Shown here piece after piece: positions 9,012-35,164 of a stretch of 64,000 nucleotides of DNA. Numbering within the stretch: position 1 is the first letter of the stretch; each line of letters starts with the position of its first letter. The notes under the pieces were generated by a model. The model saw nothing but the letters and a program-made list of their open reading frames with translations, was not told the origin of the DNA and ran no database searches. Location of the stretch: contig OY969604.1 in the NCBI GenBank assembly GCA_963701325.1, positions 13,710 to 77,709 on the forward strand, in the 5' to 3' direction. Position numbers and translations under genes: made by a program. This DNA is from an uncultured Acidimicrobiaceae bacterium (lineage in GTDB: Bacteria; Actinomycetota; Acidimicrobiia; Acidimicrobiales; RAAP-2).

Positions 9012-9040
9012 TCCGACCGTCGAGGCCCGCTGGTGTGGGG

Positions 9041-9080: not shown

Positions 9081-9258
9081 GCAACCCTGCGGTCCGCCGA
9101 CAGATCGCACCGGGGAGGGTGTGGATCGGACCGCCACCCGTTCTACCAACCGCTCGGTGACGCCACCGTCACGAATGGCTGAAGCTTCGGTGAACAGGTG
9201 GTGACCGACCGGCGGACGACCACGAGCCCGGCCCGAGGGGATCGGTGCCGATCTGGCC

Positions 9259-9729: not shown

Positions 9730-9809
9730 TCGAGCTCCCGCGACGAGGACTGATCCCTCTTCGGGCTATTCTCGTCACGGCCCCCGCCGAATTGCAAGCA
9801 CTGCCGGCG

Positions 9810-10241
9810 CTAGCGGGCGGTGATGTACTCCATCAGCTCGTTGCGGTCCTTCTCGAGCTCACCCATCCGGCTCTTGACCACGTCGCCGATGCTGACGATC
9901 CCGATCAGCTTCCCCTTCTCGACCACCGGCACATGGCGGATCCGCTGCTCGGTCATCAGATTCATGATCGACTGCACGTCGTCGGTGGGTGCGCACACCC
10001 GGACCGAACTCGACATGATCGAGGTCACCGGTTCGTCCAGTAGATCGGTTCGGACCTCGCTCAGGTGCCAGACGACGTCCCGCTCGGAGACGATTCCCTC
10101 GATGGTGCCATCGCCTGGTGAGACGATGAGGGCGCCCACACGGTGGCGGACCAGCTCGGCCACGACCGTCCCCACCGTGACCTCGCGGGTGACCGTTGCG
10201 ACGCTGGTGCCCTTGGCCTCGAGGATGGTGGCGACGAGCAT
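9810..10241 (-). CDS. CBS-pair domain protein
   Basis: ATG 10241 follows GGAGGGATC. Two CBS motifs (VGALIVSPGDGTIEGIVSERDVV and IRHVPVVEKGKLIGIVSIGDVV). 143 aa. Confidence 0.85.
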   Translation of the reverse strand: MLVATILEAKGTSVATVTREVTVGTVVAELVRHRVGALIVSPGDGTIEGIVSERDVVWHLSEVRTDLLDEPVTSIMSSSVRVCAPTDDVQSIMNLMTEQRIRHVPVVEKGKLIGIVSIGDVVKSRMGELEKDRNELMEYITAR

Positions 10242-10367
10242 GATCCCTCCACTTCCGGCGCGGGAATCCCGCACCTCGTTCCGGCCACGACACGGTGGCC
10301 GGAATATCATCGCGCCAGCGAGACGCAAAAGATACCGGTCCGGGTGCCTGGAGCACCCCGGTCGTGC

Positions 10368-11419
10368 TCAGACGACGGAGGCCCGCTCTGGGAAGTGGCA
10401 CGCGACCGGGTGGCCGCCGCCTCGGTCGACGAGGGCCGGAACCTCTTGGGCACAGAGCTCCTGGGCCTTCCAACACCTCGTGCGGAACCGGCACCCGCTC
10501 GGGGGAGCTTCCGGGCTGGGCACGTCGCCCTCGAGGACGATGTGCCGCCGCGAACGCTCCTTCCTGGGGTCGGGCACGGGAACGGCAGACAGCAGCGCCT
10601 GGGTATAGGGGTGCTCCGGGCGCCCGTAGACGTCGGCTCGGGTCCCCACCTCCACGATGCGCCCGAGGTACATGACGGCCACCCGATGCGAGATGTGGCG
10701 GACCACCGAGAGGTCGTGGGCGATGAACAGATAGGACACGCCGAGCTGCTGTTGGAGGTCCTCCAGGAGATTGACCACCCCAGCCTGGATGGAGACGTCG
10801 AGCGCCGAGACCGGTTCGTCGAGCACCAAGAGCTTGGGCTCCAGGATGAGGGCTCGGGCAATGCCGATCCGTTGTCGTTGGCCACCCGAGAACTCGTTGG
10901 GGAACCGGCTGGCGTGATCGGGCTCGAGGCCGACCAGCTGCAGCGCATCCGCGACCCTCTGCCGCCCGGAGCCGCGCTCCCACAGACCATGGATGTGAAG
11001 GGGCTCGGCGAGCGACTCGCCCACCGACATCCTCGGGTCGAGCGAGGCGAAGGGATCCTGGAACACGACCTGGATGTCACGACGAACCTCTCGGATGGTG
11101 CGCGGCGCGAGGCCGACCAGCTCACGACCTTCGAATCGCACCGAGCCCGACGTCGGCTCGATGAGCTGGAGCACGGCCCGACCGGTCGTGGTCTTCCCGC
11201 AGCCCGACTCGCCGACGAGGCCCAGGGTCTCACCCTGCCGGATCGAGAAGCTCACCCCGCATACGGCGTGCACGGTCCCTCGCTGCCGGCGGAAGCTTCG
11301 GTTGCGGACCGGATAGTGCTTGACCAGATCGACGACCTCCAGGAGAGGCCCGGTCTCGTCAGCGACCACTGAGGAGCCGACCCCGGTGGTCACCGCCGCA
11401 TGCGGCCCGTCCGCCGCGG

Positions 11420-14434: not shown

Positions 14435-16198
14435 CTAAGCGGTCTTCAGCCCCCACAGGTTGGCGTTCCAGGGGATGCCGGACTCGGACACATTGGGCAC
14501 GAGGTTGCCGTAGTTCGAGTTCCAGGCGAAGTAGGTGGGTACCTGGTACAGCGGCAACGTGACCATGTCGCCCCAGATCAGCTTGTCCGCCTGGTTGAAG
14601 TCACTGGCTTCCTGGCTCGCCGAGGTGGCCGCGGCGCCCGAAGCCAACAATTTGTCGACCTCTGGATTGGCGTAGTGGTCGTAGTTGGAGGAGCACGCGG
14701 AGCTCGTGTACGAGCAGTACACCGGTTGATTGCCGGACGGGAACGGTGACGAGACCCAGGCGAATTCGACGATCTGGAAGCTACCGTCCGGGAGGTTGGT
14801 CCCGAAGAGGGTGTTCGCGTCGTAGTTCTGGATGTTGATCTTGATGCCGATGGTCTTCATGTTGGCCTGGAAGAGCTGCTCGGTCTGTGAGCGGACCGCG
14901 TTGCCGGAGGTGGACTGGATGGTGAAGGTGAGGTCCTTGTGGGCCTGCGGGCCGTAGTTGGCCTGGAAGTAACCGTCGGATCCCATCTTGAACCCGAGTC
15001 CCTTGAGCAACGATTCGGCCTTGGCCGTGTTGAGCGTGGCGTAGGCTGCGCCGTTGTCAACGTACTGTGGCTGGGTCGGCATGAACATCCGGTTCCCGAG
15101 TGGGACGGTGCTCGGGTAGACCTCCCCCACGGTGTGGGAGATGATCTGCGGGCGGTTGGTCCCATAGGCGATGGCTTGGCGCACCTGGAGTTTGGCCAGA
15201 TACGGGTCAGCCTGGTTGAAGTCGATGTGCTCGAATTGGAGCCCGGGCGCGATCACCCGGGTGGTGTTGGGCACCTGGGCCGCGTTCTGGACCATCGAGG
15301 TGCTCACCGTCGAGGGGTTGATGAGTTGGACCTCGCCGTTCTGGAGGGCGGGTACCTCCTGGGTGTCGTCCGAGAAGAATTGGAAGACGATCTTGTTCAG
15401 CTTGCCCGGCGTCCCCCAGTACTTCGGATTGCGGACCAGGACGACCGACTGGTTGTTGTTGTAGCTCTGGATCTCATACCAGCTGCCCGAGATGGTCTGG
15501 GCCGGACCGGCGAACCCGGTGTTCCAGCCGACAGTCCGAGCGATGTGCGCCGGGACCAGGTTGATGAACAGGCTCTGCCAGTCGGCGAAGGGTTGGGAGA
15601 ACTTGACGGTCACCGTCTTGCCGTTGGGGCAGAGCCCAGCGTTGTTGTCGGCTGCTGATCCCGGATCGCAGGCTGCGCCGCCGGACGGGTTCGAGCCGCT
15701 GATCGAGGAGATCTGGCTGTACCCCGTGGTCGAATAGGCGTCGTAGGGCTGTCCACCGACGTCGGTGTACGCGGAATTGCCGCTCTGGGCCTGCCAGTTG
15801 TAGATGAAGTCGTCCGCGTCGATGGGCATCCCGTCCTGCCAGACCGCCTTCGGGTTGATGTTGTAGGTGACGGTCTGGGGGTTCGAGGTGATGGTGACGC
15901 TGCTCAGCAGGTCGGTGTTGAGGACCGGCTTGAGGCCGGCGTTGACGATGTAGGGCTGGGGCCAGACGATGTCGAGGATCTCCTGGAGGACGAACGAGTT
16001 TGCCGCCGTCGTGTTGATGTTGAACCCTGACAGGTTCTCGTCGAGGGCCATGGTCAGGGTGCCACCCGACTTGACCGCGCCCGCGCTCGCGCCGGACGTG
16101 GCGGTCGTGCCGCCGCCGCTGCTGCACGCGGTCAGGATGATCGAGGCGACGCCCACCAGCACCGCCGCCACGGCGAATCGTCTGCCTCTTCCGAACAT
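14435..16198 (-). CDS. ABC transporter substrate-binding lipoprotein, family 5 (peptide/nickel)
   Basis: Signal peptide with lipobox MFGRGRRFAVAAVLVGVASIILTAC. ATG 16198 is preceded by GGGAG. The ORF is open up to GTG 16231, and ATG 16210 is also possible. First gene of the 5-gene operon. Confidence 0.85.
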   Translation of the reverse strand: MFGRGRRFAVAAVLVGVASIILTACSSGGGTTATSGASAGAVKSGGTLTMALDENLSGFNINTTAANSFVLQEILDIVWPQPYIVNAGLKPVLNTDLLSSVTITSNPQTVTYNINPKAVWQDGMPIDADDFIYNWQAQSGNSAYTDVGGQPYDAYSTTGYSQISSISGSNPSGGAACDPGSAADNNAGLCPNGKTVTVKFSQPFADWQSLFINLVPAHIARTVGWNTGFAGPAQTISGSWYEIQSYNNNQSVVLVRNPKYWGTPGKLNKIVFQFFSDDTQEVPALQNGEVQLINPSTVSTSMVQNAAQVPNTTRVIAPGLQFEHIDFNQADPYLAKLQVRQAIAYGTNRPQIISHTVGEVYPSTVPLGNRMFMPTQPQYVDNGAAYATLNTAKAESLLKGLGFKMGSDGYFQANYGPQAHKDLTFTIQSTSGNAVRSQTEQLFQANMKTIGIKINIQNYDANTLFGTNLPDGSFQIVEFAWVSSPFPSGNQPVYCSYTSSACSSNYDHYANPEVDKLLASGAAATSASQEASDFNQADKLIWGDMVTLPLYQVPTYFAWNSNYGNLVPNVSESGIPWNANLWGLKTA

Positions 16199-16300
16199 CG
16201 ACGCTCCCATCGTCCGGCCGCCACGCGGCACGTCACCTCCATCGGCAACGTCACGAAACCGTAACCGAGATCCCGGGCGAGGGTCTTGACATCAATGGCG

Positions 16301-16346
16301 GGTCCGGACGGTCACCGAGCGCGTTCTCGCACGGACCGTCCGGACC
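16301..16346 (-). terminator. Hairpin between the nitronate monooxygenase stop and the ABC operon promoter region
   Basis: GGTCCGGACGGTC (16301-16313) pairs perfectly with GACCGTCCGGACC (16334-16346). 13-bp stem, 20-nt loop, 16 nt beyond the stop at 16362. Confidence 0.35.
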
Positions 16347-16361
16347 GGGCGCCCGCTCCGG

Positions 16362-17483
16362 TCAGACGGTGACCTCCGGCTGGAGGCGCTCCGAGGCCTC
16401 GATGTACTCCTCGACCATCGAGAAGACCACATCCTTGGCCTTGCGCACGGTGGTGGCCCGGCCGATGACCTGTCCGCACGGGTTGAAGTTCACGTCCTTG
16501 GCCTGTTCCGGGTAGCGGTGCCCGCGTGAGACCGCCTCGATGGCCACCATCATCTGGAGAGGCATCGGGAGCGGATCCGGGCTGTCCTCTGCCTCCCAGG
16601 CCTCGGTCCAATCGTTGCGCAGCATGCGGCAGGGCTTCCCGGTGAAGGAACGGGACCGGACTGTGTCCCGGCTGGACGCGGCAAGGTAGGTCTCCATCTG
16701 CCGGGGTGGGATGTCGGCCTCCTCGACGGTGAGCCAGAGGGTGCCCGACCACACCCCTTGGGCGCCGAGTGCGAGCGCAGCTGCCATCTGGCGTCCGCTG
16801 CCGACCCCCCCTGCGGCGAGCACCGGGATCGGTGCCACCGCGTCGACCACCTCGGGCCAGAGCACGATGCTGCCGACGTCGCCGGTGTGGCCACCTCCTT
16901 CGGAACCCTGGCAGATGATGAAGTCGAGGCCGGCGGTCTTGTGGTTGAGGGCGTGCTTGACCGATCCGGCCAGTGCGCCGATCAACCGGCCGGCCCCCTG
17001 GACCCGCTCGACCACGTCCGGCGGGGGAGTGCCCAGCGCGTTGGCGATGAGCTTCACATTGGGATGGCGCAGAGCAACCGTGAGGAGGCCGGCCGCATGG
17101 GCGGCAGTCCAGCCGATCATCCCGTTTGAGGTCCGTTCGCTTTCGGGGATCTCGGGAACGCCGTGGTCGGCGAGGATCTTGAGGGCGAACTCCTTGTGCT
17201 GTGGCGGCACCAGGCCGCGGATCTGGGCCTCGAGCTTGTCGGGGTCCATCTCGTCCATTCCCTCGTACTTGGCCGGGATCACGATGTCGACCCCGTAGGG
17301 CTTGTCGCCGACGTGCTCGTCGATCCAGGTCAGCTCGACCTCGAGCTGGTCGGGGGTGAAGCCGATGGCACCGAGGACCCCGATCCCTCCGGCGTTGGTG
17401 ACCGCGGCGACCACGTCACGGCAGTGGGTGAAGGCGAAGATCGGGAATTCGATGCCGAGCGTGTCGCAGATCTCAGTGTGCAT
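16362..17483 (-). CDS. Nitronate monooxygenase (NMO / 2-nitropropane dioxygenase family, FMN-dependent)
   Basis: MHTEICDTLGIEFPIFAFTHCRDVVAAVTNAGGIGVLG...ICQGSEGGGHTG...VLAAGGVGSGRQMAAALALGAQGVW. ATG 17483 overlaps the end of the TetR gene by 11 nt. Confidence 0.85.
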   Translation of the reverse strand: MHTEICDTLGIEFPIFAFTHCRDVVAAVTNAGGIGVLGAIGFTPDQLEVELTWIDEHVGDKPYGVDIVIPAKYEGMDEMDPDKLEAQIRGLVPPQHKEFALKILADHGVPEIPESERTSNGMIGWTAAHAAGLLTVALRHPNVKLIANALGTPPPDVVERVQGAGRLIGALAGSVKHALNHKTAGLDFIICQGSEGGGHTGDVGSIVLWPEVVDAVAPIPVLAAGGVGSGRQMAAALALGAQGVWSGTLWLTVEEADIPPRQMETYLAASSRDTVRSRSFTGKPCRMLRNDWTEAWEAEDSPDPLPMPLQMMVAIEAVSRGHRYPEQAKDVNFNPCGQVIGRATTVRKAKDVVFSMVEEYIEASERLQPEVTV

Positions 17484-23835: not shown

Positions 23836-24963
23836 GTGATCCGGCTCTACGACACAGCCCGCCAGGAGGTCGCCCCGCTCGAGGCCGGTCCCCTCGTCAC
23901 GCTCTACTCGTGTGGGATCACCCCGTACGACTCGGCCCATCTGGGACATGCGCAGGTCTACCTGACCTTCGACATCCTCCAGCGCCGGCTGCGCGATCTC
24001 GGGCACGGTACGCGCTGCGTTCGCAATGTCACCGACGTGGACGACGACATCCTGCGCAAGGCACGCGAGCTCGGGGTCCACTATCTCGACCTGGCCGCCG
24101 AGGAGATGACCCGGTTCGACGCCGACATGGCCGCGCTCGGACTCCTCCCCGCGTGGTCTGAGCCCCGGGCGACCTCGGCGATCCCCGAGATCCTCACGCT
24201 CATCGGTTCGGTGCTCGAGTCGGGGCATGCGTACCGCTCCGGAGGTGCGGTCTACTTCGACGTGACCACCTTCGCCCGGTTCGGCGAGATCAGCCATCTC
24301 GGACAGGACGCGATGGTGGCCCTCGCCGCCGAGCACGGTGGCAATCCGAACGACCCGCAGAAGCGACACCCGCTCGACTTCGTCCTCTGGCAGCCCTCCC
24401 TTGCCGACGAACCGTCGTGGGAGTCGCGCTGGGGACCCGGCCGGCCGGGCTGGCACATCGAGTGCTCGGCCCTGGCGCTCCGAGAGCTCGGTGAGACCGT
24501 CAACGTCCACGGTGGTGGGCGCGACCTGGTCTTCCCCCATCACGAGTGCGAGGCGGCCCAGTCCGAGTCGGTCACCGGCACCCGGTTCGTCCGCCACTGG
24601 CTCCACGTCGGCCTCGTGGGCCTGGATGGCACCAAGATGTCGAAGTCCCTCGGCAACCTGGTCTTCGTGGGTGATCTGTTGAAGGAGTGGGAGCCGGCGG
24701 TCGTACGGCTGGCGCTGCTCTCGCACCACTACCGGCACGATTGGGAGTGGTCGGACGGCGATCTGGCTCGTGCTGAGACCCGTCTCGCCGCCTGGCGTGC
24801 CGCGGGTCAGGGATCCGGGCCTGAAGAGGACGGGCTCGCTCTGGTGCGCGCCGCCCTCGACGACGACCTCGACACCCCGTCCGCTCTCGACGCCCTCGAC
24901 AGGGAGGCGGCTGCCGGCCGGCCCGTCGTCCGTGGGGCAGCGTTGCTGGGCGTTACCCTGTAG
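23836..24963 (+). CDS. mshC: Cysteine--1-D-myo-inosityl 2-amino-2-deoxy-alpha-D-glucopyranoside ligase (mycothiol ligase, CysRS paralogue lacking the anticodon domain)
   Basis: CGITPYDSAHLGHA, GPGRPGWHIECSA, FPHHE, KMSKSLGN. The short C-terminus ends DDDLDTPSALDALD...ALLGVTL, as in MshC rather than CysS. GTG start. Confidence 0.8.
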   Translation: MIRLYDTARQEVAPLEAGPLVTLYSCGITPYDSAHLGHAQVYLTFDILQRRLRDLGHGTRCVRNVTDVDDDILRKARELGVHYLDLAAEEMTRFDADMAALGLLPAWSEPRATSAIPEILTLIGSVLESGHAYRSGGAVYFDVTTFARFGEISHLGQDAMVALAAEHGGNPNDPQKRHPLDFVLWQPSLADEPSWESRWGPGRPGWHIECSALALRELGETVNVHGGGRDLVFPHHECEAAQSESVTGTRFVRHWLHVGLVGLDGTKMSKSLGNLVFVGDLLKEWEPAVVRLALLSHHYRHDWEWSDGDLARAETRLAAWRAAGQGSGPEEDGLALVRAALDDDLDTPSALDALDREAAAGRPVVRGAALLGVTL

Positions 24964-25076
24964 GACTGTCGCGATCGGATTGGTGCACCGGCCGCCCCGA
25001 TCCATCGTCGGGGGCATCCCGGGCGTCCACCTCGCCGGACACCGTCGATTCCAACGTTTCGGAGAAAGGCACACCA

Positions 25077-27080
25077 ATGGCAGCCGTCAACGTCCGACTC
25101 CCTGATGGCTCGACCAAGGAGATCGAGAAGGGCACCACGGCGCTCGAGCTTGCTGCCGCGATCGGTCCCCGTCTCGCCAAGGCTGCGATCGCCGCCACCT
25201 TCGACGGCGTGCCGGTGGACCTGTCGGCCGTCGTGCCCGACGGAGCCGAGGTGACCGTCGTCACCGCCGACTCGCCCCTCGGCCGCGAGGTGCTGCGTCA
25301 CTCGACCGCCCATGTGCTGGCCCAGGCGGTCCTGCGGCTCTGGCCGGGCGCGCACTACGCCATCGGCCCGGTGATCGAGGACGGCTTCTACTACGACTTC
25401 GAACTGCCGGGTGGGGCCCACTTCAGCGATGAGGATCTCGGGCGGGTGGCCACCGAGATGCGGGCGATCATTGCCGAGGACCAGCCCTTCGTCCGCGACG
25501 AGTATTCGATCGGAGAGGGTCTGGCTCTCTTCGCCGACCAGCCGTTCAAGCGCGAGATCATCGAGGCGGTTGCCGCCGGCAGCGACGAGGTCGACGCCTC
25601 CGGCGCAGGCGCCAACGGGGCGGCGATCTCGATCTACCGGAACCCGCCCGCCTTCACCGACCTGTGCCGTGGACCCCACGTGCCGAGCACTGGCCGGTTG
25701 GGCCACTTCGCCCTCCAGCGGGTGGCCGGCGCCTATTGGCGCGGCGACGAGAAGCGCCAGCAGCTCCAGCGCATCTACGGCACCGCCTGGGAGTCGGACG
25801 CCGCGCTCGCCGAACACCTCCGGCTCCTCGAGGAAGCCGAGCGGCGCGACCACCGCAAGCTCGGTGCGGAGCTCGACCTGTTCTCGTTCCCGGAGGAGAT
25901 CGGGTCCGGTCTGCCGGTCTTCCACCCGAAGGGCGGGACGATCCGCCGGTTGATGGAGGACTACTCGCGCCAGCGTCATGTGGCGGCGGGCTACGAGTTC
26001 GTCAACACGCCCCACATCACCAAGTCCGAGCTGTTCGAAACGTCCGGACACCTCGACTGGTTCGCCGAGGGGATGTTCCCGCCCATGGAGCTCGACGGCG
26101 GCCAGCGCTATTACCTCAAGCCGATGAACTGTCCGTTCCACGTCCTCATCTTCAAGAGCCGCCAGCGCTCCTACCGAGACCTTCCGCTCCGGCTCTTCGA
26201 ATTCGGCGCGGTCTACCGTTACGAGAAGTCGGGCGTGGTGCACGGTCTGACCCGGGTGCGAGGCATGACCCAGGACGACGCGCACATCTTCTGCACCCGC
26301 GAGCAGATGGCCGACAAGCTCCACTCGACCCTGACCTTCGTGCTCTCGGTGCTCCACGATTACGGCCTCGAGGACTTCTTCCTCGAGCTCTCGACCCGTC
26401 CGGAAGGCAAGGCGGTCGGCACGGTCGAGGAGTGGGACGAGGCCACCGAGACGCTCCGCAGCTCCGCGCTCGGGATCGGCCTCGAACTGGTGCTCGACGA
26501 GGGCGGCGGTGCCTTCTACGGGCCCAAGATCTCCGTGCAGGCCAAGGACGCCATCGGCAGGACCCACCAGATGTCGACGATTCAGCTCGACTTCCAGACG
26601 CCCCGCCGGTTCGCCGCCGAGTACATCGGGTCCGACAACACCCGCCACCTGCCGATCATGATCCACCGTGCGCTGTTCGGCTCGGTGGAGCGGTTCTTCG
26701 CCATCCTGTTGGAGCACTATGCCGGCGCACTGCCCACCTGGTTGGCACCCGAGCAGGTTCGGGTCCTCGGGGTGCGGGACGACCATCAGGGCTATGCCGA
26801 CAAGGTGGCTGCCCGCCTGGCCGCGGTCGGTGTGCGGGTGGGGCTCGAGCCGGCCGACGAGCCGCTCTCGGCCCGGATCCGTCGGGCCAAGCTGCTCAAG
26901 ACGCCCTACATCCTGGTGGTCGGAGACGACGATGTCGCCGCAGGCACCGTCGGGGTCAACCGACGGGGGAGCGACCGTCCGGTACGGGGTGTCCCGGTGA
27001 CCGACTTCACCGAGGCACTCGAACGCGAGATCACCGAGCGGCGACTGCCCGAATCGTCGGGCTCGACCGCCGGCGGGTGA
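25077..27080 (+). CDS. thrS: Threonine--tRNA ligase
   Basis: 667 aa. TGS domain VRLPDGSTKEIEKGTTALELA, editing-site HSTAHVLA, class II core FHPKGGTIRR...YRYEKSG...QDDAHIF, and an anticodon-binding C-terminus. RBS GGAGAAAGG. Confidence 0.97.
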   Translation: MAAVNVRLPDGSTKEIEKGTTALELAAAIGPRLAKAAIAATFDGVPVDLSAVVPDGAEVTVVTADSPLGREVLRHSTAHVLAQAVLRLWPGAHYAIGPVIEDGFYYDFELPGGAHFSDEDLGRVATEMRAIIAEDQPFVRDEYSIGEGLALFADQPFKREIIEAVAAGSDEVDASGAGANGAAISIYRNPPAFTDLCRGPHVPSTGRLGHFALQRVAGAYWRGDEKRQQLQRIYGTAWESDAALAEHLRLLEEAERRDHRKLGAELDLFSFPEEIGSGLPVFHPKGGTIRRLMEDYSRQRHVAAGYEFVNTPHITKSELFETSGHLDWFAEGMFPPMELDGGQRYYLKPMNCPFHVLIFKSRQRSYRDLPLRLFEFGAVYRYEKSGVVHGLTRVRGMTQDDAHIFCTREQMADKLHSTLTFVLSVLHDYGLEDFFLELSTRPEGKAVGTVEEWDEATETLRSSALGIGLELVLDEGGGAFYGPKISVQAKDAIGRTHQMSTIQLDFQTPRRFAAEYIGSDNTRHLPIMIHRALFGSVERFFAILLEHYAGALPTWLAPEQVRVLGVRDDHQGYADKVAARLAAVGVRVGLEPADEPLSARIRRAKLLKTPYILVVGDDDVAAGTVGVNRRGSDRPVRGVPVTDFTEALEREITERRLPESSGSTAGG

Positions 27081-27631
27081 GCCTCGACAGACTCTGGGCC
27101 GGTTGGCGAGGCCCGTACGTGACGGGTGCAGGTGGGGCCGCGGACGGCGAGGGCGACCCGAGCGGGCCCGCGGCGCCCGACGCCGGCGGCCCCGACCACT
27201 GCGTCTTCTGCCGGATCGCGGCGAGTGGTCCACCGTCGGTCGACAACGGGGTGCTCTGGGTGGGTACCACCACGCTGCTCGTGCTCAACGCCTACCCCTA
27301 CGCGAGCGGGCACCTGATGGCCGTCCCCCTCAGGCATGTCGGGACGCTGGCCGAGCTCACCGATGTCGAAGGTACCGACCTGTGGTCGTCACTCCGCCTC
27401 GGGGTGGCTGCGCTCGAGGCTGCCTACCACCCGGACGGGGTCAACCTCGGTGCCAACTTAGGAAAGGCGGCCGGAGCCGGGATCCCGCGGCATCTGCATC
27501 TCCATGCCGTGCCCCGCTGGGTCGGTGACACCAACTTCATGACCGCGGTGTCCGAGACCCGGGTGCTGCCGGAGACCCTCGCCTCGAGCTGGGAGCGCCT
27601 GCACGCCGCCTGGCCACAGGACGCGGTGTGA
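27077..27631 (+). CDS. HIT (histidine triad) family protein
   Basis: CVFCRI...NAYPYASGHLMAVP...GAGIPRHLHLHAVPRW (HxHxHxx). GTG 27077 overlaps the thrS TGA (GTGA). Same position as the HIT gene in the mycobacterial thrS-pgsA1 block. Confidence 0.85.
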   Translation: MSLDRLWAGWRGPYVTGAGGAADGEGDPSGPAAPDAGGPDHCVFCRIAASGPPSVDNGVLWVGTTTLLVLNAYPYASGHLMAVPLRHVGTLAELTDVEGTDLWSSLRLGVAALEAAYHPDGVNLGANLGKAAGAGIPRHLHLHAVPRWVGDTNFMTAVSETRVLPETLASSWERLHAAWPQDAV

Positions 27632-27731
27632 GCACCAGGTGGGCCCGACGCGACGGCGGTCCGCGCCCCTGACCGAGCGCGGGTCCCGAGCGACCAGGTG
27701 GTACGCTGAGCTGGACCTTCTGGAGGAACCG

Positions 27732-28508
27732 ATGTTCGACGGGCGATGGCGCGTGGCGGTGGACCGGGGGACCGGACCCGTCGGGCGAAAGCTGCATCGG
27801 ATGGGGGTGACCGCCGATGTGTTGACGGCCACCGGCCTCATCTCGGCAGCGGCCACGGCGGTCGCGGTCGGGTCCGGCCATCTGCACCTTGCGATCGTCC
27901 TGTTGATCCTGACCGGTCTCCACGACCTCCTGGACGGGCCGGTCGCAAAGGCATCGGGCACCTCGTCGGTGCGGGGGGCCTTCTTTGACTCGGTCACCGA
28001 CCGGGTGTCGGACGCGCTCATTCTCGGCGGTGTGGCCTGGTACCTCGTGGGGGCCGATCCCGGGCATCTGGTGCTGCTGCCCTTCGCCATCCTCGGGACG
28101 ACCTCGCTCGTCTCGTATCAGCGCGCCAAGGCCGAGTCGCTGGGCATCTCGGCCAAGGGCGGCCTGATGGAGCGGGCCGAGCGGATGATCCTCCTCGGCA
28201 TCGGGTTCCTCTCTGCCTCGTTCTTGGTCCCGGTGCTCTGGCTGATGCTCGCCCTCACCCTGGCCACTGCGGTCGGGCGGTTCGCCAGGGTCTGGCGCCT
28301 GGCCGAGCCTCCGGCGGCGCAGGCGACCGTCCAGCGCACGCGGCGTCCCCGTGCCACCGCCAGGATCGGGGGACGCACCGGCTCGTCGTTCCCCTCCCGG
28401 TGGCGTGCCCGTCGACAGGGGGAGCTGGCCAGCCGGTCCGGTCGGACGTGGCGGGCCAGGCATGCCCGCCAGGGATTCCGCCAGCGGGCCGGCCGGCGTC
28501 ACGGCTGA
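27732..28508 (+). CDS. pgsA1: CDP-alcohol phosphatidyltransferase, phosphatidylinositol-phosphate synthase type, with an Arg-rich C-terminal tail
   Basis: Motif DGPVAKASGTSSVRGAFFDSVTDRVSD (DGx2A[RK]x8Gx3Dx3D). About 5-6 TM segments. RBS GGAGGAACC before ATG 27732. Synteny thrS-HIT-pgsA1-patA-pimA. Confidence 0.8.
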   Translation: MFDGRWRVAVDRGTGPVGRKLHRMGVTADVLTATGLISAAATAVAVGSGHLHLAIVLLILTGLHDLLDGPVAKASGTSSVRGAFFDSVTDRVSDALILGGVAWYLVGADPGHLVLLPFAILGTTSLVSYQRAKAESLGISAKGGLMERAERMILLGIGFLSASFLVPVLWLMLALTLATAVGRFARVWRLAEPPAAQATVQRTRRPRATARIGGRTGSSFPSRWRARRQGELASRSGRTWRARHARQGFRQRAGRRHG

Positions 28509-28545
28509 ACGTTCTCACCACCGCGTCGTTCGGGGCTGAGAACCG

Positions 28546-29466
28546 ATGAGCAACGGACGGGTGCTGCTCCGGACGTACACCACCCTCGGCCGCTGTCTCG
28601 CAGCGCTGCCCGAGCCGGTCGCGCTGGGGGTGGCCTCGATGGTCGGGGACACCCTCTACCGGGTGCGCCACGAACACCGGGCGATGATCTCCGCCAACCT
28701 CAGCCGGGTCGTCGGTGGAGGGCCCGACGACAGCGAGTTGCTGGATCGGTGGGCACGGCGCGCGTTTCGGGCCTACGCTCGATACTGGGTTGAAGGGGCC
28801 AGGATCGGGAGCACGTCGCCGGACGAGATCGTCCGGCGAATGTGCGTGGACGGCCTCCACCACCTGCACGAAGGGATGGCCCGAGGCAAGGGTGTCGTGA
28901 TGGCGCTACCGCACATAGGGAGCTGGGAGTACGGGGGTGCCTTTCTCGCCACGCAGGGACTGCCGATGACCGCCGTCGCCGAGCGCCTCGAACCGCCCGA
29001 GCTCTTCGACTACTTCGTCCAACAGCGGGCGGCCATGGGCCTGACCGTCGTCCCACTGGACAACCGCTCGGGTGGGACCCTGATGACCACCTTGCGAAAC
29101 GGGGGACTGGTGGGCCTCCTCTGCGACCGCGACATCGAGGGAACCGGCATCGAGGTCGAGTTCTTCGGCGAGACGACCACCATGCCGGCGGGCCCGGCCA
29201 CTCTGGCCCTCCGTAGTGGCGCGGTCCTGGTCACCGGTGCCGTCTACAGCGGACCGGGCCACGATCACCGGGCGCTCGTCGAACCGCCGCTCGACACCAC
29301 CCGGACCGGCACCCTGCGCGCCGACGTCGCCCGGCTGACCCAGGAGGTCGCCACCCGGCTCGAGGGGCTCATCCGACGTGCCCCCGAACAGTGGCACGTC
29401 TTCCAGCCGCTGTGGCTTGCCGACCGGCCGGAGGCCACCAGGGACGCGGACGGGATCCCGGCATGA
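28546..29466 (+). CDS. patA: Phosphatidylinositol mannoside acyltransferase (HtrB/LpxL lysophospholipid acyltransferase family)
   Basis: 306 aa. Acyltransferase HX4E box LPHIGSWEYGG, FFGETTTMPAGPATLA. Position between pgsA1 and pimA. Confidence 0.75.
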   Translation: MSNGRVLLRTYTTLGRCLAALPEPVALGVASMVGDTLYRVRHEHRAMISANLSRVVGGGPDDSELLDRWARRAFRAYARYWVEGARIGSTSPDEIVRRMCVDGLHHLHEGMARGKGVVMALPHIGSWEYGGAFLATQGLPMTAVAERLEPPELFDYFVQQRAAMGLTVVPLDNRSGGTLMTTLRNGGLVGLLCDRDIEGTGIEVEFFGETTTMPAGPATLALRSGAVLVTGAVYSGPGHDHRALVEPPLDTTRTGTLRADVARLTQEVATRLEGLIRRAPEQWHVFQPLWLADRPEATRDADGIPA

Positions 29467-31347
29467 GCGCCGAGCACACCCCCCGCGCCACCGAACAGGG
29501 AACCACCGCGCCTCCGCTGAGCGAGGACGGGGCGCAGCGCGTCCGGATCCCACCGGTCCCGGTGCCGGACGTCGGCCCGGCAGCCGCCAACGGGGCCCAC
29601 GCGGGTAACGGGTCGGGTCCTGGCGGGGAACCCCGGTTCCGCACGCTCGAGGAACACGAGTTCGACGTGGTCGCCGTGGTCTCCGCAGAAGGACGCTTCC
29701 TCTTCGTGAGCGCATCGGCCGAGGCGTTGCTCGGGTACGACATCAGCAACGCGATCGGTCAGGACGCCTTCCGCCTCCTCGAATCGTTCAGCGTGGACCC
29801 GGTGCGCTCGCTCTTCGACGACCTGGTGGCCCGACGGCGGCTCTCGCTCTCGTTGGAGCTCGAGACGACCCGTGCCGACGGGACCCCGATCGACCTCGAA
29901 GTGGTGGCGGCCAACCACCTCGACGATCCGATCGGCGGGATCGTGCTCAACATCCGTGACATCACCGAGCGAAAGCGGCTCGAACAGCGGGTGCGCGCGG
30001 TCGACCGGCGCCAGGACGTCATCGTCGAGTCATTGGCCGACGGCCTGATCATGGTCGACGCGGCCGGCCGGATCGTCCGGGTCAACGAGGCGTTCGAGGT
30101 GCTCTTCTCGGTCCCCCGGATCAGGCTGCTCGGGCGTCGCCTCGTGGATGTGCTCCAGCTGCAGCGCGACGAAGGACTCGACCTGTTCGACGAGGACGGG
30201 GAGACCGTCGACGACGAGGACCACCCGGTCCTGGTGAGCTTGCGGACGCGGCCGCCGGGTCGTCGGTGTCGTCCTGGGATTCCGCGACCGCGAGGGGCCG
30301 TCCCGGTGGGTCCGGGTCAACGCGGCCGCCATCATCGAGCCCGACGGCACGGTCGGTGGCGCGGTGGGATCGATCAGCGACATCACCGGCCAGCGTGCTG
30401 CGGCCTACGCCTTGCATCAAGAGGAGCGTTTCCTCCAGGTCCTGCTCGACACCCTCGACGAGGGCATCGTGGCCTGCGACGCGGACGGACGGATCACCGT
30501 GTTCAATCCGGCGGCCCGGCGCCTCCACGGCCTGACGGGGGACGCTGAGCCGGTGGGGCGGCTCCCGTCGAGCAGTCGGCTGCGACGGCCGGACGGCTCG
30601 CCACTCGAGTCGGCTGACAACCCATTGCTCTTGGCCATGTCGGGGGAGCGTCTCACCGATGTGGAGATCCTCCTCGAGTCCGACGACGGCGGGCACCGCA
30701 AGGTGAGCGTCAACGGCCAGGCCCTCGTCGACGACGACGGCTGGAAGCTCGGCGCGGTCGTGGCCATGCACGACGTGACCGAACAGAAGCGCAACGAAGA
30801 GCGCCTCGCGGAGCTGGCCCTCCACGATCCCCTGACCGGGCTGGCCAACCGGGCCCTGTTGGCCGAGCGGCTCCAGCAGGCCATCGACAGCCTCGCGCGG
30901 AGCGCCGAGGCCGGCGAGCCCGTGCCGGCCGGCGCCGAGCACTCCGGGGTGGCGGTCTACCTCCTCGACCTCGACGAGTTCAAGGAGATCAACGACGAGC
31001 TCGGCCACGAGGTGGGTGACGAGATGCTCGTCGCGGTGGCCCGCCGGCTCTCCGCCATCGTCCGGCCCTCGGACACGGTGGCCCGGCTGGGTGGCGACGA
31101 GTTCGTGATCGTCTGCGACATCGAGAGCGGCGAGGAGGAGATGCTCCGGATCGGGGAGCGGATCTCGGAGGCGTTGGCCCGGCCCTACCGCATCGAAGGG
31201 CGGACCCTCGTCGCCGAGGCCTCGGTGGGTGGCGTCTTCGCCGACAATCCGGACACCGACCCTTCCAAGCTGTTGAGTCGGGCGGACGACGCCATGTACG
31301 GCGTCAAGTGGAGCCGGCGCCGGCACCGCCGCTCGATGACGGACTGA
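29463..31347 (+). pseudogene. PAS-PAS-PAS-GGDEF diguanylate cyclase, frameshifted (+1) at about 30249 inside PAS2
   Basis: ATG 29463 overlaps the patA TGA (ATGA). There are three PAS-like modules, each ending in an ...DIT(E/G)(R/Q)K-type linker. The GGDEF domain has LHDPLTGLANR, A-site RLGGDEFVIV (31090-31104) and I-site RPSD 5 aa upstream. Frame 0 gives ...DEDHPVLVSLRT and frame +1 gives GRRVVGVVLGFRDREGPSRWVRVNAAAIIEPDG... Confidence 0.85.
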
Positions 31348-31354
31348 CCGGTCG

Positions 31355-32545
31355 GTGGCCGGAGGCGGTGCGCCGGGTCCGGCGTTGCGAGTCGCCCTGA
31401 TCTGCCCCTACAGCCTCTCCCGACCCGGTGGCGTCCAGGGCCAGGTCCTTGGCCTCGCCCGCAGCCTCGTCGGGCGAGGGCACGAGGTCACCGTGTTCGC
31501 CCCGCTCGACGCGGCGAGCGATGCGCCCGCCGGGATCGCCCTGGTACCGACCGGTCACGCGGTCTCCGTCCGGGCGAACGGGTCGGTCGCGCCGGTCACC
31601 ATCTCGCCCCGTGCCGTGCGGCACGCCGTCCGGGCATTGCGCTCGCTCGATGCCGACGTGGTCCACGTCCACGAACCGTTCGCCCCCGGCCTGCCCTACG
31701 GCGTCCTGGCGGCCAGCCGGATGCCGCCCGTCGTCGCGACCTTCCACCGCAGCGGCAGCAGTGTCCTCTACACACTGCTGCGCCCGTTGGCCAGGATTGC
31801 CGCACGTGGTCTGGCGGCGCGCTGCGCGGTCTCGGGTGCTGCTGCAGCCACCGCCTCCCGAGCTCTGCCCGGGCGTTACGAGGTGTTGTTCAACGGGGTC
31901 GAGGTCGACCGCTACCGCCGGGTCGAATCGTGGTCCACGATCGGCCCGACCGTGCTCTTCCTCGGCCGGCACGAGGAGCGCAAGGGATTGTCCGTCCTGC
32001 TCGAGGCCGCGGCGTGCCTCGCCCGCGACCGGGATCGTCTTCGGGCCGATGCGCCAGCTCCGATTCTCTGGGTCGCCGGGGACGGTCCGCAGACCGCGGC
32101 ACTCCGGCGGCGTCATCCCGAGTCGAGCACCCTGCAGTGGCTCGGGGTGCTGAGCGAGGAGGAGAAACTCCGGCGGCTCGCCGCCGCCGACGTGCTGACC
32201 GCCCCGTCGCTCGGGGGAGAGTCCTTCGGGATGGTGCTGCTCGAGGCCATGGCCGCCCGAACGGTGGTGGTGGCCAGTGACATCGAGGGGTACCGGGCCG
32301 CGAGCGGGGGGTGCGCCGTGCTCGTGCCACCGGGCGACGCGCGGGCCTTGGCCGCAGCGCTCGCCGGCGTGCTCGACGGCCGCCTCGCTCCGCCAGCACG
32401 TCCAGGCGCGGACGTCGGATCCACGAGCGACTGTGGAGCCTGGCTCGATCGCGGGTCCGAGCGCGCCGAGCAGTGGTCGATGGAGGTCCTGGCCGAGCGG
32501 TACGAGGAGATCTACCAAGCCGTGATGGTCGGGGCCGGCCGCTGA
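31355..32545 (+). CDS. pimA: GT4 glycosyltransferase, phosphatidyl-myo-inositol alpha-mannosyltransferase type
   Basis: LRVALICPYSLSRPGGVQGQVLGLARSL N-terminus, EX7E region ESFGMVLLEAMAA. Synteny with pgsA1/patA. GTG 31355; TTG 31385 is an alternative start. Confidence 0.8.
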   Translation: MAGGGAPGPALRVALICPYSLSRPGGVQGQVLGLARSLVGRGHEVTVFAPLDAASDAPAGIALVPTGHAVSVRANGSVAPVTISPRAVRHAVRALRSLDADVVHVHEPFAPGLPYGVLAASRMPPVVATFHRSGSSVLYTLLRPLARIAARGLAARCAVSGAAAATASRALPGRYEVLFNGVEVDRYRRVESWSTIGPTVLFLGRHEERKGLSVLLEAAACLARDRDRLRADAPAPILWVAGDGPQTAALRRRHPESSTLQWLGVLSEEEKLRRLAAADVLTAPSLGGESFGMVLLEAMAARTVVVASDIEGYRAASGGCAVLVPPGDARALAAALAGVLDGRLAPPARPGADVGSTSDCGAWLDRGSERAEQWSMEVLAERYEEIYQAVMVGAGR

Positions 32546-32567
32546 GCGGCCGTACACTGCTCGGACG

Positions 32568-33809
32568 ATGAGCGACGCCCCGGATCGTCCAGGCCCAGCC
32601 GGCCCACCCGGGAGCCCGTCCGGCGGCGGTCCTCCCCGTCCGGGGTCCTCGGGCACCTCGGGCAGCGCTTCGGGCGGCGGCTCCGGCAACCGCCGCCGCC
32701 GCGGGCCGCGCCCCTCCTCCTCCTCCTCCTCCTCCTCCTCCTCCTCGTCCTCCGGTACCTCGTCCTCCGGGGGCGGCTCCTCAGGTGGCAGGAGCCGCGG
32801 CGGCTCTCGCCAACCCGGTCGCGGCGGTACCGCCGGAGCCGGCAAGCGCAGTGGGTCCGGCGGCGGTTCCTCCCGTGCCGCTTCCGGCGGTCGGCGACCC
32901 GCCGGATCCGGGGGCGCGCAGCCGCGGCGCAGTGGTGCCGGGCCGAGCCAGACCGAGGGTGCGGTCACGGTTGTTCCCACGCCCAGGGCGGACCGGTCCG
33001 CCGACGTCGCGGAGGTGGCCGCGATCAAGGCGAACCGCAGGCGGGCACTCACCTTGTGCCTGCTCCCCGGCGCCGTCATCGGGATCGTGCTGGGTGCCGT
33101 CCTCCTCGCGGTCGGTCAGCCGGTGGTGGCTCTCGGGGTGCTCGTCGTCTCGGTTGTCCTGGTCGCCGCGCTGGTCTGGTGGGGCGCGCCAGGGACCGTC
33201 TCCCGCTCCCTCGGAGCCTGCCCCAGCGAGGAATGGGAGCATCCCCGCCTGCACAACCTGGTGGACGGCCTCTGCGCCACGATGGGCCTCGACCGGCCGA
33301 CCGTGCTCGTCGTCGACAGCGACGTGCCCAACGCAATGGCCATCGGCCGCGACCCTGCGTCAGCGTCCCTGGTGGTCACGAGCGCCCTCGACCGGGACCT
33401 CGGCCTGGTCGAGCTCGAGGGAGTGCTGGCTCACGAGCTCGTGCACATCAAGCGTCACGACACGGTCCTGGCCGGGATCGCTGTGATGGTCACCGTGCCG
33501 TGGGCCCTCGTGCGGGGCACCCCGGCGGGCGTCCGGACCGTCCACCGGTTGATCGGACCCGGGCGCGAGTTCTCCGCCGACCAGCGCGCGGCCACGGTGG
33601 TGCGCTATCCACCCGGCATCTGCTCGGCGCTCCAGACCATGCTCGGGTCCGCCTCCCGAGCCGGCGGCTGGCCGCCGTCGACGGGACGGGTCGCGGCCCT
33701 GACTCGGTGGCTCTGGGTCGACCCGATGGCTGGATCATCCCCGGCGGAGTCGCCGGACGGGAATCTCGACGACACCAGAGTGCGGGCAGCCGCCTTCTCG
33801 CTCGGCTGA
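32568..33809 (+). CDS. M48-family (HtpX-like) zinc metallopeptidase with a ~150-aa Gly/Ser/Arg/Pro low-complexity N-terminal region
   Basis: HExxH as HELVH (33432-33446) in AHELVHIKRHD. Two TM segments precede it (LLPGAVIGIVLGAVLLAV, VVALGVLVVSVVLVAALVWW). The N-terminus is GPPGSPSGGGPPRPGSSGTSGSASGGGSGNRRRRGPRPS(13xS)GTSSSGGGSSGGRSRGGSR... Confidence 0.75.
   Translation: MSDAPDRPGPAGPPGSPSGGGPPRPGSSGTSGSASGGGSGNRRRRGPRPSSSSSSSSSSSSSGTSSSGGGSSGGRSRGGSRQPGRGGTAGAGKRSGSGGGSSRAASGGRRPAGSGGAQPRRSGAGPSQTEGAVTVVPTPRADRSADVAEVAAIKANRRRALTLCLLPGAVIGIVLGAVLLAVGQPVVALGVLVVSVVLVAALVWWGAPGTVSRSLGACPSEEWEHPRLHNLVDGLCATMGLDRPTVLVVDSDVPNAMAIGRDPASASLVVTSALDRDLGLVELEGVLAHELVHIKRHDTVLAGIAVMVTVPWALVRGTPAGVRTVHRLIGPGREFSADQRAATVVRYPPGICSALQTMLGSASRAGGWPPSTGRVAALTRWLWVDPMAGSSPAESPDGNLDDTRVRAAAFSLG
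32713..32753 (+). repeat. Trinucleotide microsatellite (CCT/TCC)n inside the M48 peptidase gene, encoding Ser13
   Basis: 11 perfect CCT units (32713-32745) followed by CGTCCTCC. In frame this reads TCC x10, TCG, TCC, TCC. Confidence 0.9.
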
Positions 33810-33839
33810 CGGCTCGCCCGGGGGCCAGACGGGGTTCGC

Positions 33840-34370
33840 TCAGCCGGCGGTCGGGCAGATGCCGATCTCGTCGTCAGCGTCGCAGCCCCAGCCCGCGCCG
33901 GTGTTCTGCTCGAGCACGTGGTCTCGCAGCCGTCGGAGCAGCGCGCCCAGCTGAGCCTCTTCGGCGGGGGAGAACAACTGGCTGAGGAGCTCATCGATGT
34001 GAGCGAGGTGCTCCGGGATGGCCCGCTCCATCATCTCCCGGCCGGCGGGAGTGAGCTCGGCGAACGAGCCGCGCTTGTCCTGAGGACACGTGCGACGGGT
34101 GACCAGTCCCTGGTCCTGGAGACGGTCGACGGCACGGGTGAGCCCGCTCGGTGAGAGGGAGCTCTGGGCGGCGAGCTCGCTCATCCGCAGCGCGTTCCCC
34201 TCGGTGCGGGCCAGCCGGATGAGGACGTCGAACGACTGGTTGGACGAAAGGCTGTCCGGCTCGAGCCGCCGCTCGAAGAGGCGTCGCAGCCCGGCGGCCG
34301 ATTCGAAGAGCAGGCCCACCGTGGTGAGCCGCTCGTCAGTGGACTCCCGCATGTCCGTTGTCGATCCCAT
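33840..34370 (-). CDS. MarR-family transcriptional regulator
   Basis: wHTH FDVLIRLARTEGNALRMSELAAQSSLSPSGLTRAVDRLQDQGLVTRRTCPQDKRGSFAELTPAGRE. 176 aa. Confidence 0.85.
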   Translation of the reverse strand: MGSTTDMRESTDERLTTVGLLFESAAGLRRLFERRLEPDSLSSNQSFDVLIRLARTEGNALRMSELAAQSSLSPSGLTRAVDRLQDQGLVTRRTCPQDKRGSFAELTPAGREMMERAIPEHLAHIDELLSQLFSPAEEAQLGALLRRLRDHVLEQNTGAGWGCDADDEIGICPTAG

Positions 34371-34395
34371 GCCCGGAGCTTACAGGTTTGGAGAA

Positions 34396-34438
34396 ATAGT
34401 TGCGACTGCAAATAAATGTCGTATAGTTGTTTGTGCAA
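34396..34438. promoter_or_regulatory. Candidate MarR operator pair in the marR/yceI divergent intergenic region
   Basis: Two 16-nt direct repeats, ATAGTTG-CGAC-TGCAA (34396-34411) and ATAGTTG-TTTG-TGCAA (34423-34438), have starts 27 nt apart. Each contains a TTG...CAA dyad. They lie in the only AT-rich stretch of this region. Confidence 0.4.
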
Positions 34439-34485
34439 GCACAGAAGCGCCCGAGGGCGCAGCACACGACCTCAAAGGAGCAGCT

Positions 34486-35068
34486 ATGGCACAGACCACA
34501 GAAGTGACCAGCAGGACAGTCAACGGTGCGGAGTATCCGGCTGTGGGCACCTACACCATCGATCCGAGCCACACCCGCATCGGGTTCGCGGTACGGCACA
34601 TGGCCGTGTCCAAGGTACGTGGCGGGTTCAACCGGTTCGAGGGCACACTCCAGCTCGCCGAGGACCCGGTCGATTCGACGGTGTCCGTCTCGATCGAGGC
34701 CGACAGCGTGGACACCCGCGACGAGAACCGGGACAACCACCTCCGGACCAACGACTTCTTCGACGTACCCAACCATCCGACCTGGACCTTCGTGAGCACG
34801 GGCGTTCGCCCGGTCGACGCGACCCACTGGAAGGTGGACGGCGACCTGACCATCCGCGGGACGACCAGGCCGGTGACCCTGGATGCCGAGCTCGAGGGGG
34901 TCGTGAAGGACCCCTACGGCAACCATCGGGTGGGCTTCGAGCGCGACGGCGTCCCTCGACCGCGAGGAGTTCGGTGTGGCGTTCGGAGCGGTCATGGAGG
35001 CCGGCGGGCTCGTCGTCGGCAAGAAGGTCGACATCGAGATCGAGGCCGAGGCGGTGCTCCAGCAGTAA
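34486..35068 (+). pseudogene. YceI-family (polyisoprenoid-binding) protein, frameshifted (+1) near 34942
   Basis: AAAGGAG RBS, ATG 34486. GTYTIDPSHTRIGFAVRHMAVSKVRGGFNRFEG...DTRDENRDNHLR...DGDLTIRGTTRPVTL...GNHRVGFE, then one base on ATASLDREEFGVAFGAVMEAGGLVVGKKVDIEIEAEAVLQQ with stop 35066-35068. Confidence 0.8.
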
Positions 35069-35093
35069 GAAGCCTCCACGGCAGCCAGTCCCC

Positions 35094-35123
35094 ACCGTCG
35101 CCACCCCACGGGGTGGCGACGGT
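35094..35123 (+). terminator. Hairpin after yceI
   Basis: ACCGTCGCCACC (35094-35105) pairs perfectly with GGTGGCGACGGT (35112-35123). 6-nt loop, 26 nt after the stop. Confidence 0.5.
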
Positions 35124-35164
35124 CGCGGGCGGGGAGCTCCAGGACCCGCAGGTAGGATGGAGCG

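Follow-up and report, generated by a model that had tools for sequence, protein, structure and literature searches.

A predicted PAS-GGDEF diguanylate cyclase gene held in register between patA and pimA in the phosphatidylinositol mannoside block of one Acidimicrobiales clade

The early genes of phosphatidylinositol mannoside (PIM) synthesis serve an essential, deeply conserved actinobacterial envelope pathway, which in mycobacteria is an area of drug targets, and we know of no second-messenger input to them. In the Corynebacterineae they lie in a block made up of Rv2614c (thrS-like), Rv2613c, Rv2612c (pgsA), Rv2611c (acyltransferase), Rv2610c (pimA) and Rv2609c (mutT-type), with no gene between the acyltransferase and pimA (PMC3229680). 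Cyclases that act locally on glycosyltransferases or polysaccharide synthases have been described in other systems, namely BcsA-PilZ, PgaCD, NfrB-DgcJ and BgsA (e.g. PMC8669469, PMC5567048, PMC10211494), and in M. smegmatis the loss of PdtaS, a kinase that binds cyclic di-GMP (c-di-GMP), lowers the levels of phosphatidylinositol (PI), phosphatidylethanolamine (PE) and hexamannoside (late) PIMs (bioRxiv 10.1101/615575, preprint). Here we analyse a PAS-PAS-PAS-GGDEF diguanylate cyclase gene that stands between patA and pimA in an uncultured Acidimicrobiaceae bacterium. The stretch analysed, hereafter the window, comprises 64,000 nucleotides (GCA_963701325.1, contig OY969604.1, positions 13,710 to 77,709 of the forward strand), and all coordinates are those of the window unless a related locus is named.

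A sensor cyclase gene in register between patA and pimA

The window shares the thrS-HIT-pgsA-patA-...-pimA order with the mycobacterial and corynebacterial block (PMC3229680). It differs in that the direct succession of patA and pimA, which defines a block of the Rv2614c-Rv2609c type, is broken by a 1.9-kb sensor cyclase gene. The original prediction had taken patA to be followed directly by pimA in mycobacteria and corynebacteria; the published block bears this out, and the insertion relative to that order is real. The genes of the block and the two junctions are:

25077-27080, forward strand: thrS, threonyl-tRNA synthetase, which opens the conserved block (Pfam TGS, tRNA_SAD, tRNA-synt_2b and HGTP_anticodon)
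27077-27631, forward strand: HIT-family gene, Rv2613c-like (Pfam HIT, 1.1e-9; NCBIfam ATP adenylyltransferase match under cutoff)
27729-28508, forward strand: gene for a PgsA-like CDP-alcohol phosphatidyltransferase, putative PI-phosphate synthase (Pfam PF01066; alternative GTG start at 27639)
28546-29466, forward strand: patA, PIM acyltransferase (NCBIfam equivalog NF005919, 262 bits, cutoff 209)
29463-29466, forward strand: ATGA overlap of the cyclase ATG (29463-29465) with the patA TGA (29464-29466), read in the sequence
29463-31347, forward strand: PAS-PAS-PAS-GGDEF diguanylate cyclase gene, 627 aa after removal of one base
31348-31354, forward strand: 7-nt spacer from the cyclase TGA (31345-31347) to the pimA GTG (31355), read in the sequence
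31355-32545, forward strand: pimA, GT4/GT-B mannosyltransferase (Pfam Glyco_transf_4 and Glycos_transf_1)

Pfam, NCBIfam and PDB searches upheld the predicted order of thrS, HIT, pgsA1, patA, PAS x3-GGDEF and pimA; the pgsA1 assignment itself corresponds to matches under cutoff, the top NCBIfam models for the PgsA-like protein being AIP synthase (132 bits, cutoff 180) and PIP synthase (PIPSynth; 126.8 bits, cutoff 170). In PDB sequence searches, PatA matched M. smegmatis PatA (5oce) with E=2.7e-46, the next family lying at 1.7e-9, and PimA matched M. smegmatis PimA (4n9w/2gej) with E ~8e-51, the next PDB match lying at 3.4e-9. PimA reached no NCBIfam family at or over its cutoff. Both proteins are plainly orthologous to their M. 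smegmatis counterparts.

A scan with PatA, restricted to one genome per species, returned 80 loci, all from metagenome-assembled genomes (MAGs) of Acidimicrobiales. Two of these stop just past patA, leaving 78 informative loci. The patA-cyclase-pimA arrangement occurred in 76/78, and L078 and L079 had patA followed directly by pimA. Recurrence on this scale is beyond chance and is not a one-off. The original prediction had proposed comparing patA-pimA junctions across related genomes, and the comparison also delimited the insertion, which marks one clade of uncultured soil bacteria inside Acidimicrobiales and not the whole class Acidimicrobiia.

The register of the cyclase gene was equally constant at both ends. 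Its start codon preceded the patA stop by a single base in 76/76 loci (ATG in 41, GTG in 35), and the frame was open from this overlapping start into the conserved domains in 68/76 loci, the others being loci with assembly frameshifts. Downstream, pimA started 0-9 nt after the cyclase stop in 69/74 loci, mostly with GTG at 7 nt or TTG at 4 nt. The ATGA overlap and the 7-nt distance to pimA, both pointed out in the original prediction, are therefore features of the clade as well as of the window. The pgsA-patA gap (~44 nt in all 88 loci) and the patA/cyclase and cyclase-pimA spacings are fixed, whereas the HIT-pgsA distance varies between 71 and 4525 nt (~100 nt in the window and the genomes nearest to it), so that the unit kept unchanged is pgsA-patA-cyclase-pimA. 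The HIT-pgsA interval holds an EF-G-like gene on the opposite strand in the sister clade introduced below (e.g. L085 2729-4798) and a glyoxalase gene in L082 (4255-4698), and several ingroup loci (e.g. L036) have 2-4.5 kb of additional DNA there.

Translation signals were compared by hybridising the -20 to -4 region of each start to a generic anti-Shine-Dalgarno sequence. Median values were -6.1 kcal/mol for the cyclase start, -6.4 for patA, -5.2 for thrS, -3.2 for pimA and -3.2 for random positions. By its Shine-Dalgarno-like complementarity, the cyclase start looks like a real initiation site. No Shine-Dalgarno-like site was found before pimA, its median being that of random positions, and since pimA would then be without a ribosome-binding site of its own, its translation most likely depends on ribosomes that have just finished translating the cyclase. 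From pgsA through pimA, no terminator-like site exceeded the shuffled-sequence level. A promoter and terminator scan of 24500-34500, made with a sigma-70 consensus poorly suited to the phylum, gave counts not clearly over shuffled sequence and no site that would isolate the cyclase gene. The claim that the gene is co-transcribed and probably co-translated with its neighbours has gained in strength: with overlaps or near-overlaps kept on both sides in 76 loci and a pimA devoid of a Shine-Dalgarno-like site, co-transcription and co-translation of the cyclase with patA and pimA are strongly suggested.

The nearest outgroup came from a third homologue search together with a library of representatives at 50% identity; these identified a sister clade with PatA ~57% identical to that of the window. 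There, pimA followed patA directly in 6/7 loci (L085, L086, L088, L089, L090 and L091). A neighbour-joining tree was built from ThrS, PgsA, PatA and PimA (1585 columns, 100 bootstraps); rooting on M. smegmatis PatA and PimA alone left the base unresolved, and these closer outgroups were used instead. Monophyly of the ingroup received a bootstrap value of 100. The loci without the cyclase, which besides L078 and L079 include the related contexts L081 and L084, were monophyletic (100) and sister to their next relative, the cyclase-bearing L082 (100), and the cyclase-bearing L076 joined this group at 92; a basal position of the cyclase-less clade had a value of 0. The simplest history would be one gain in the ancestor of the clade, then one clean loss in a nested subclade. 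In that subclade patA and pimA overlap directly by ATGA or GTGA (L078 and L079 at ~10880-10950; L081 at 6894-6897), a junction that looks like the product of a clean excision. Compared with cyclase-bearing genomes, PimA of this subclade has ~9 additional residues at its N-terminus.

Domains and conservation of the cyclase

The protein of 627 residues encoded by the frame-corrected gene is divided as follows:

First ~57-65 aa of the cyclase: variable, disordered N-terminus (AlphaFold2 predicted local distance difference test, pLDDT, <50 for residues 1-65; variable over 57 residues in the alignment)
29634-29987, forward strand (~aa 58-175): PAS domain 1 (Pfam PAS families; AlphaFold2 secondary structure)
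29988-30399, forward strand (~aa 176-312): PAS domain 2, which holds the frameshift (Pfam, best PAS stretch 185-307)
30400-30798, forward strand (~aa 313-445): PAS domain 3, the best conserved PAS (aligns with the PAS of P. aeruginosa PA0861)
30799-31344, forward strand (~aa 446-627): GGDEF catalytic domain (Pfam PF00990; alignments to solved cyclases)
31063-31074, forward strand: I-site RPSD (RxxD), five residues upstream of GGDEF (RPSD-TVARL-GGDEF), with R, P and D invariant in orthologues
31090-31104, forward strand: active-site GGDEF (RLGGDEFVIV; RLGGDEF = aa 541-547), from a motif scan and invariant in 121 sequences

The GGDEF domain matched Pfam PF00990 over almost its full length (133.9 bits, cutoff 23.8; profile positions 1-159/161; E=5.5e-39). 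The stretch LDLDEFKEINDELGHEVGD matches solved cyclases column by column and is invariant in the orthologues, and alignments to the same structures showed the metal- and GTP-binding residues DxDxFKxIND...GHxxGD to be intact and likewise invariant; for the numbering we took the correspondence of cyclase positions to PleD residues as presumed. The guanine-contacting Asp is present, in place of the Ser of Hypr variants that make cyclic GMP-AMP (cGAMP), so c-di-GMP is the predicted product. The description of the domain as catalytically competent in appearance, with an I-site, is in keeping with both motifs being intact and invariant in 121 orthologues. At 31282-31320 lies a C-terminal motif, invariant family-wide as ADDAMYGVKWSRRR, in place of the common ADxAxYxAKxxGRN.

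No transmembrane segment was found in the cyclase (maximum hydropathy 1.28 over 19 aa). An AlphaFold2 model, built on an alignment of 45 orthologues, had a mean pLDDT of 79.5 and contained three alpha/beta PAS units (pLDDT mostly 80-95) with a long helix running from the PAS units into the GGDEF domain. In Foldseek the list was headed by E. coli DosP and P. aeruginosa RbdA (PA0861); PpsR, cyclases linked to phytochrome or LOV modules, and the tandem PAS domains of MmoS and FixL were also matched, with a target-normalised template modelling (TM) score of 0.70-0.75 for FixL. The PDB entry 5xgb matched PAS3 and GGDEF together (9e-26); PDB searches with single PAS domains gave only weak matches, to RbdA and to the WalK PAS (the latter 4.8e-6 with PAS2). 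Neither these searches nor the conserved Cys, His and Trp residues nor AlphaFold2 with Foldseek allowed haem- or flavin-binding residues to be assigned in the PAS domains: H152, W282, C338, H355 and H436 are conserved and not diagnostic of a cofactor, and since the structural matches are generic multi-PAS sensors no PAS ligand can be named. The protein is, as predicted from these features, an ordinary cytoplasmic (soluble) PAS-GGDEF sensor cyclase.

A homologue search gave orthologues in >120 clusters at 64-93% identity, all of ~620-630 aa, and those with a named source were all labelled Acidimicrobiales. In an alignment of 121 sequences, columns at >=98% identity numbered 96 in the GGDEF domain, 50 in PAS3, 28 in PAS1 and 19 in PAS2. 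Pairwise ratios of non-synonymous to synonymous substitution rates (dN/dS) for the cyclase were 0.12-0.19 (0.12-0.15 against L001-L003, 0.17 against L004). Across related genomes, the median identity to the window protein was 81.3% for PgsA, 80.0% for ThrS, 73.4% for PatA, 68.9% for HIT, 67.6% for the cyclase and 62.9% for PimA. For a signalling protein the cyclase is conserved at a housekeeping level, and it is under purifying selection.

Readings of the insertion

We consider it probable that the gene encodes a functional, PAS-gated cyclase that was acquired at the patA/pimA junction and is co-expressed with the PIM operon. On this account the ancestor of one Acidimicrobiales clade would have gained the gene exactly at the start-stop junction, and its descendants would have kept it since. 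The gene would be transcribed together with pgsA, patA and pimA; ribosomes ending patA would start the cyclase at the ATGA overlap, and those ending the cyclase would re-initiate at pimA 4-7 nt downstream. Transcribed and translated within their operon, the cyclase would be made in step with the early PIM enzymes, which would tie its output to them in timing and rough amount. Its activity would be set post-translationally, with three PAS domains presumably sensing an intracellular cue and the RxxD I-site giving product inhibition, and the frameshift in the window would be a sequencing or assembly indel. The position of the cyclase in an envelope operon suggests a link of signalling and envelope synthesis, and a direct effect of c-di-GMP on PIM or envelope synthesis is possible as one explanation among several.

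A number of observations weigh against this reading. Pfam detected no PilZ, MshEN, GIL or degenerate GGDEF/EAL domain in HIT, PgsA, PatA, PimA or the M48 protease encoded downstream. The 64-kb window yielded no second GGDEF, EAL, HD-GYP or PilZ signature (tblastn of the GGDEF domain and crude motif scans), and Rfam found no riboswitch anywhere in it. PgsA, PatA and PimA were also searched for residues that track the cyclase, meaning residues conserved where the gene is present and replaced in every genome without it; none was found except one trivial PatA position. The nested subclade lost the gene and restored the direct patA/pimA overlap; this clean loss makes the cyclase dispensable at least in that lineage. 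The cyclases nearest to the cyclase-less clade, those of L082 (57% identity to the window) and L076 (52%), are faster-evolving. The C-terminal motif YGVKWSRRR replaces the usual YxAKxxGRN, with the Lys kept and the rest atypical; all the organisms compared are uncultured MAGs; and, judged from sequence alone, the frameshift may be a genuine, very recent one in this strain. The cyclases of L076 and L082 have intact GGDEF and RxxD motifs, and that of L082 carries a scaffold N-run inside PAS1.

The strongest rival, to which we assign a little less than an even chance, holds that the cyclase is unrelated to PIM synthesis and came to sit in a permissive junction of a constitutive operon, where it has been kept since imprecise deletion would break pimA translation. 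That the patA-pimA junction can accept foreign DNA follows from L087 in the sister clade, in which 4.2 kb of unrelated inserted DNA, including a phage-integrase fragment, occupy it. The original prediction had named unrelated genes at this junction, if common and separately transcribed, as a ground for rejecting the linkage; such an insertion in this one related genome counts against the linkage, and no predicted terminator isolating the cyclase was found. With pimA lacking its own ribosome-binding site in cyclase-bearing genomes, only precise excision would be tolerated, and the single loss was precise. No c-di-GMP receptor was found among the neighbours or in the window, which also favours this rival. 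What this rival leaves unexplained is why the cyclase never moved or duplicated elsewhere in 76 species-level genomes; otherwise it is largely compatible with the PAS-gated, co-expressed cyclase that we prefer, which leaves the target open. The insertion in L087 spans 6852-11138, contains unannotated open reading frames (ORFs) beside the integrase fragment and has a GC content of 0.69, vs 0.73 in the upstream flank.

An unlikely alternative makes the gene part of a local signalling module, in which c-di-GMP acts on PimA, PatA, PgsA or the M48 protease, or the cyclase docks onto the membrane-associated PIM enzymes, so that the cue sensed by the PAS domains tunes the envelope glycolipids. The fixed, translationally coupled position between patA and pimA throughout the clade speaks for it, as do a cyclase conserved at least as well as PimA, the precedents BcsA-PilZ, PgaCD, NfrB-DgcJ and BgsA, and the altered PI, PE and hexamannoside PIM of M. 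smegmatis after loss of PdtaS. Opposed to these are neighbours without any of the binding modules listed above, PgsA, PatA and PimA without residues specific to cyclase-bearing genomes, and a subclade in which the cyclase was cleanly lost with no change apparent in its neighbours. For GGDEF genes, moreover, adjacency by itself is weak evidence. The claim that c-di-GMP synthesis is hard-wired into PIM synthesis was accordingly not sustained: it has the position of the gene in its favour, and neither a receptor nor a riboswitch nor co-varying residues came to light. A narrower version, in which c-di-GMP directly controls the first committed PIM steps by binding PimA or PatA or by complexing with them at the membrane, we regard as improbable. 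If true, it would be the first second-messenger control of the essential actinobacterial PIM pathway and would imply a new type of c-di-GMP-binding site on a GT-B mannosyltransferase or an LpxL-family acyltransferase.

Far less likely is that the frameshift is genuine and the cyclase dead in this organism. As given, the sequence splits the cyclase reading frame into 29463-30248 and 30250-31347, and the ORFs listed over the gene are two overlapping frames, 29391-30548 and 30364-31347. Alignment with related genomes traced this to one site:

30243-30250, forward strand: frameshift, one extra G in TTGC[G]GACG at ~30244-30245 (nucleotide alignment against L001-L004)

The extra G is the only cyclase indel of a length other than 3n that is common to the comparisons with all three closest genomes; two further pairs of 1-nt gaps against L002 and L003, near 29618-29630, cancel each other. 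With the G removed, the 627-aa protein has no other lesion. Window-specific codon changes on the terminal branch comprise 32 synonymous and 6 non-synonymous ones, which resembles intact relatives and gives no sign of relaxed selection. Within ~21 kb alignable to L001-L003, a second window-specific 1-nt insertion, at 34939, breaks a conserved YceI-like gene (region 34500-35150) within 5 kb of the first; the window reads GNHRVGFERDGVPRPRG there, and in L002 the gene (15912-16559) is intact, with a YceI product of 215 aa. Among the MAG loci, cyclase genes split over several frames were found in 11/54 from MFD vs 0/22 from other projects (Fisher p=0.028), and pimA is frameshifted in the same MFD loci. 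The MFD MAGs are Nanopore assemblies (PMC12313526). The single extra G, the YceI indel, the confinement of frameshifted copies to Nanopore MAGs and the damage to pimA together indicate that the window frameshift is most probably a long-read sequencing or assembly indel error, and the pseudogene reading was rejected on these grounds. A stop ~800 nt before pimA would, in addition, be expected to reduce pimA translation. The original prediction, which had treated the frame as correctable, is borne out in this: the gene shows purifying selection and signs of assembly error, and is most probably not dead.

Least likely of all is that the GGDEF protein is catalytically silent and uses its I-site to act as a receptor for c-di-GMP or as a scaffold. 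The invariant RxxD and the unusual C-terminal YGVKWSRRR would fit this, but the GGDEF A-site and the DxDxFKxIND...GHxxGD residues are all invariant, whereas in GGDEF domains of the receptor type the A-site is as a rule degenerate.

A full-text search of the open-access literature found no paper linking a diguanylate cyclase to the PIM operon, in agreement with the remark in the original prediction that such a linkage was not known to be described. A sensor cyclase in register between patA and pimA over dozens of species is a concrete candidate for second-messenger input to these genes, with a pimA whose translation apparently relies on the cyclase gene. The cyclase-bearing lineages and the nested lineage without the gene form a natural experiment for finding its partner. 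Should the link be one of position only, the case would still illustrate an inserted gene being fixed in an essential operon by translational coupling.

The wider locus and comparison with known systems

Two further genes flank the block:

23836-24963, forward strand: gene for an MshC-like ligase, directly upstream of thrS (NCBIfam MshC model 420 bits, cutoff 485; CysS 339 bits, cutoff 340)
32568-33809, forward strand: M48/HtpX-like protease gene (Pfam Peptidase_M48), 3' of pimA in most related loci

The ligase scores higher with the MshC model than with that of CysS, both being under cutoff (CysS just under), and together with the neighbouring PI-related genes this hints at a clustering of inositol-based metabolism at the locus. 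At 27077-27080 the HIT GTG overlaps the thrS TGA as GTGA, a start/stop coupling like that of patA and the cyclase. The ~150 N-terminal residues of the M48/HtpX-like protein (32568-33020) are of low complexity, rich in Ser, Gly, Arg and Pro with a run of 13 Ser, and local GC reaches 0.76 within this segment. Farther downstream the window contains pdxS and, as the ORFs of L002 lead us to infer, probably also pdxT, yebC and ruvC/ruvA, which presumably corresponds to the mycobacterial neighbourhood. A tRNA scan found no tRNA. A full-text search of the open-access literature found no paper that treats Acidimicrobiia together with PIMs.

As a cyclase, the protein resembles the PleD/WspR type in its GGDEF A-site, the RxxD five residues upstream, DxDxFKxIND, GHxxGD and the full-length Pfam match. 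It differs in having three PAS domains as input and no receiver domains, and in the invariant YGVKWSRRR that its family has in place of YxAKxxGRN. RbdA (PA0861) and the DosP/DosC sensors are its best matches in sequence and fold and have in common with it a coiled linker from the last PAS into the GGDEF domain; unlike them, the window cyclase lacks an EAL domain and has neither a transmembrane nor a periplasmic portion.

Like the genes of the BcsA-PilZ, PgaCD, NfrB-DgcJ and BgsA systems, the cyclase gene lies among genes for membrane-associated glycosyl or acyl transfer. In contrast to those systems, the pathway here would yield membrane glycolipids of an essential type and not secreted polysaccharides, and the glycosyltransferase is a GT-B/GT4 enzyme without a recognisable c-di-GMP-binding module. 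Measured against the mycobacterial PIM block, the window clade has the M48/HtpX-like gene 3' of pimA where mycobacteria have a Nudix gene, its PgsA-like protein scores under the NCBIfam cutoffs, and PIM synthesis in its organisms is predicted from the genes. Finally, the PAS-GGDEF cyclase family and the actinobacterial early PIM block are both known parts; what is new is their combination, with the cyclase keeping one fixed register within the block throughout a clade.

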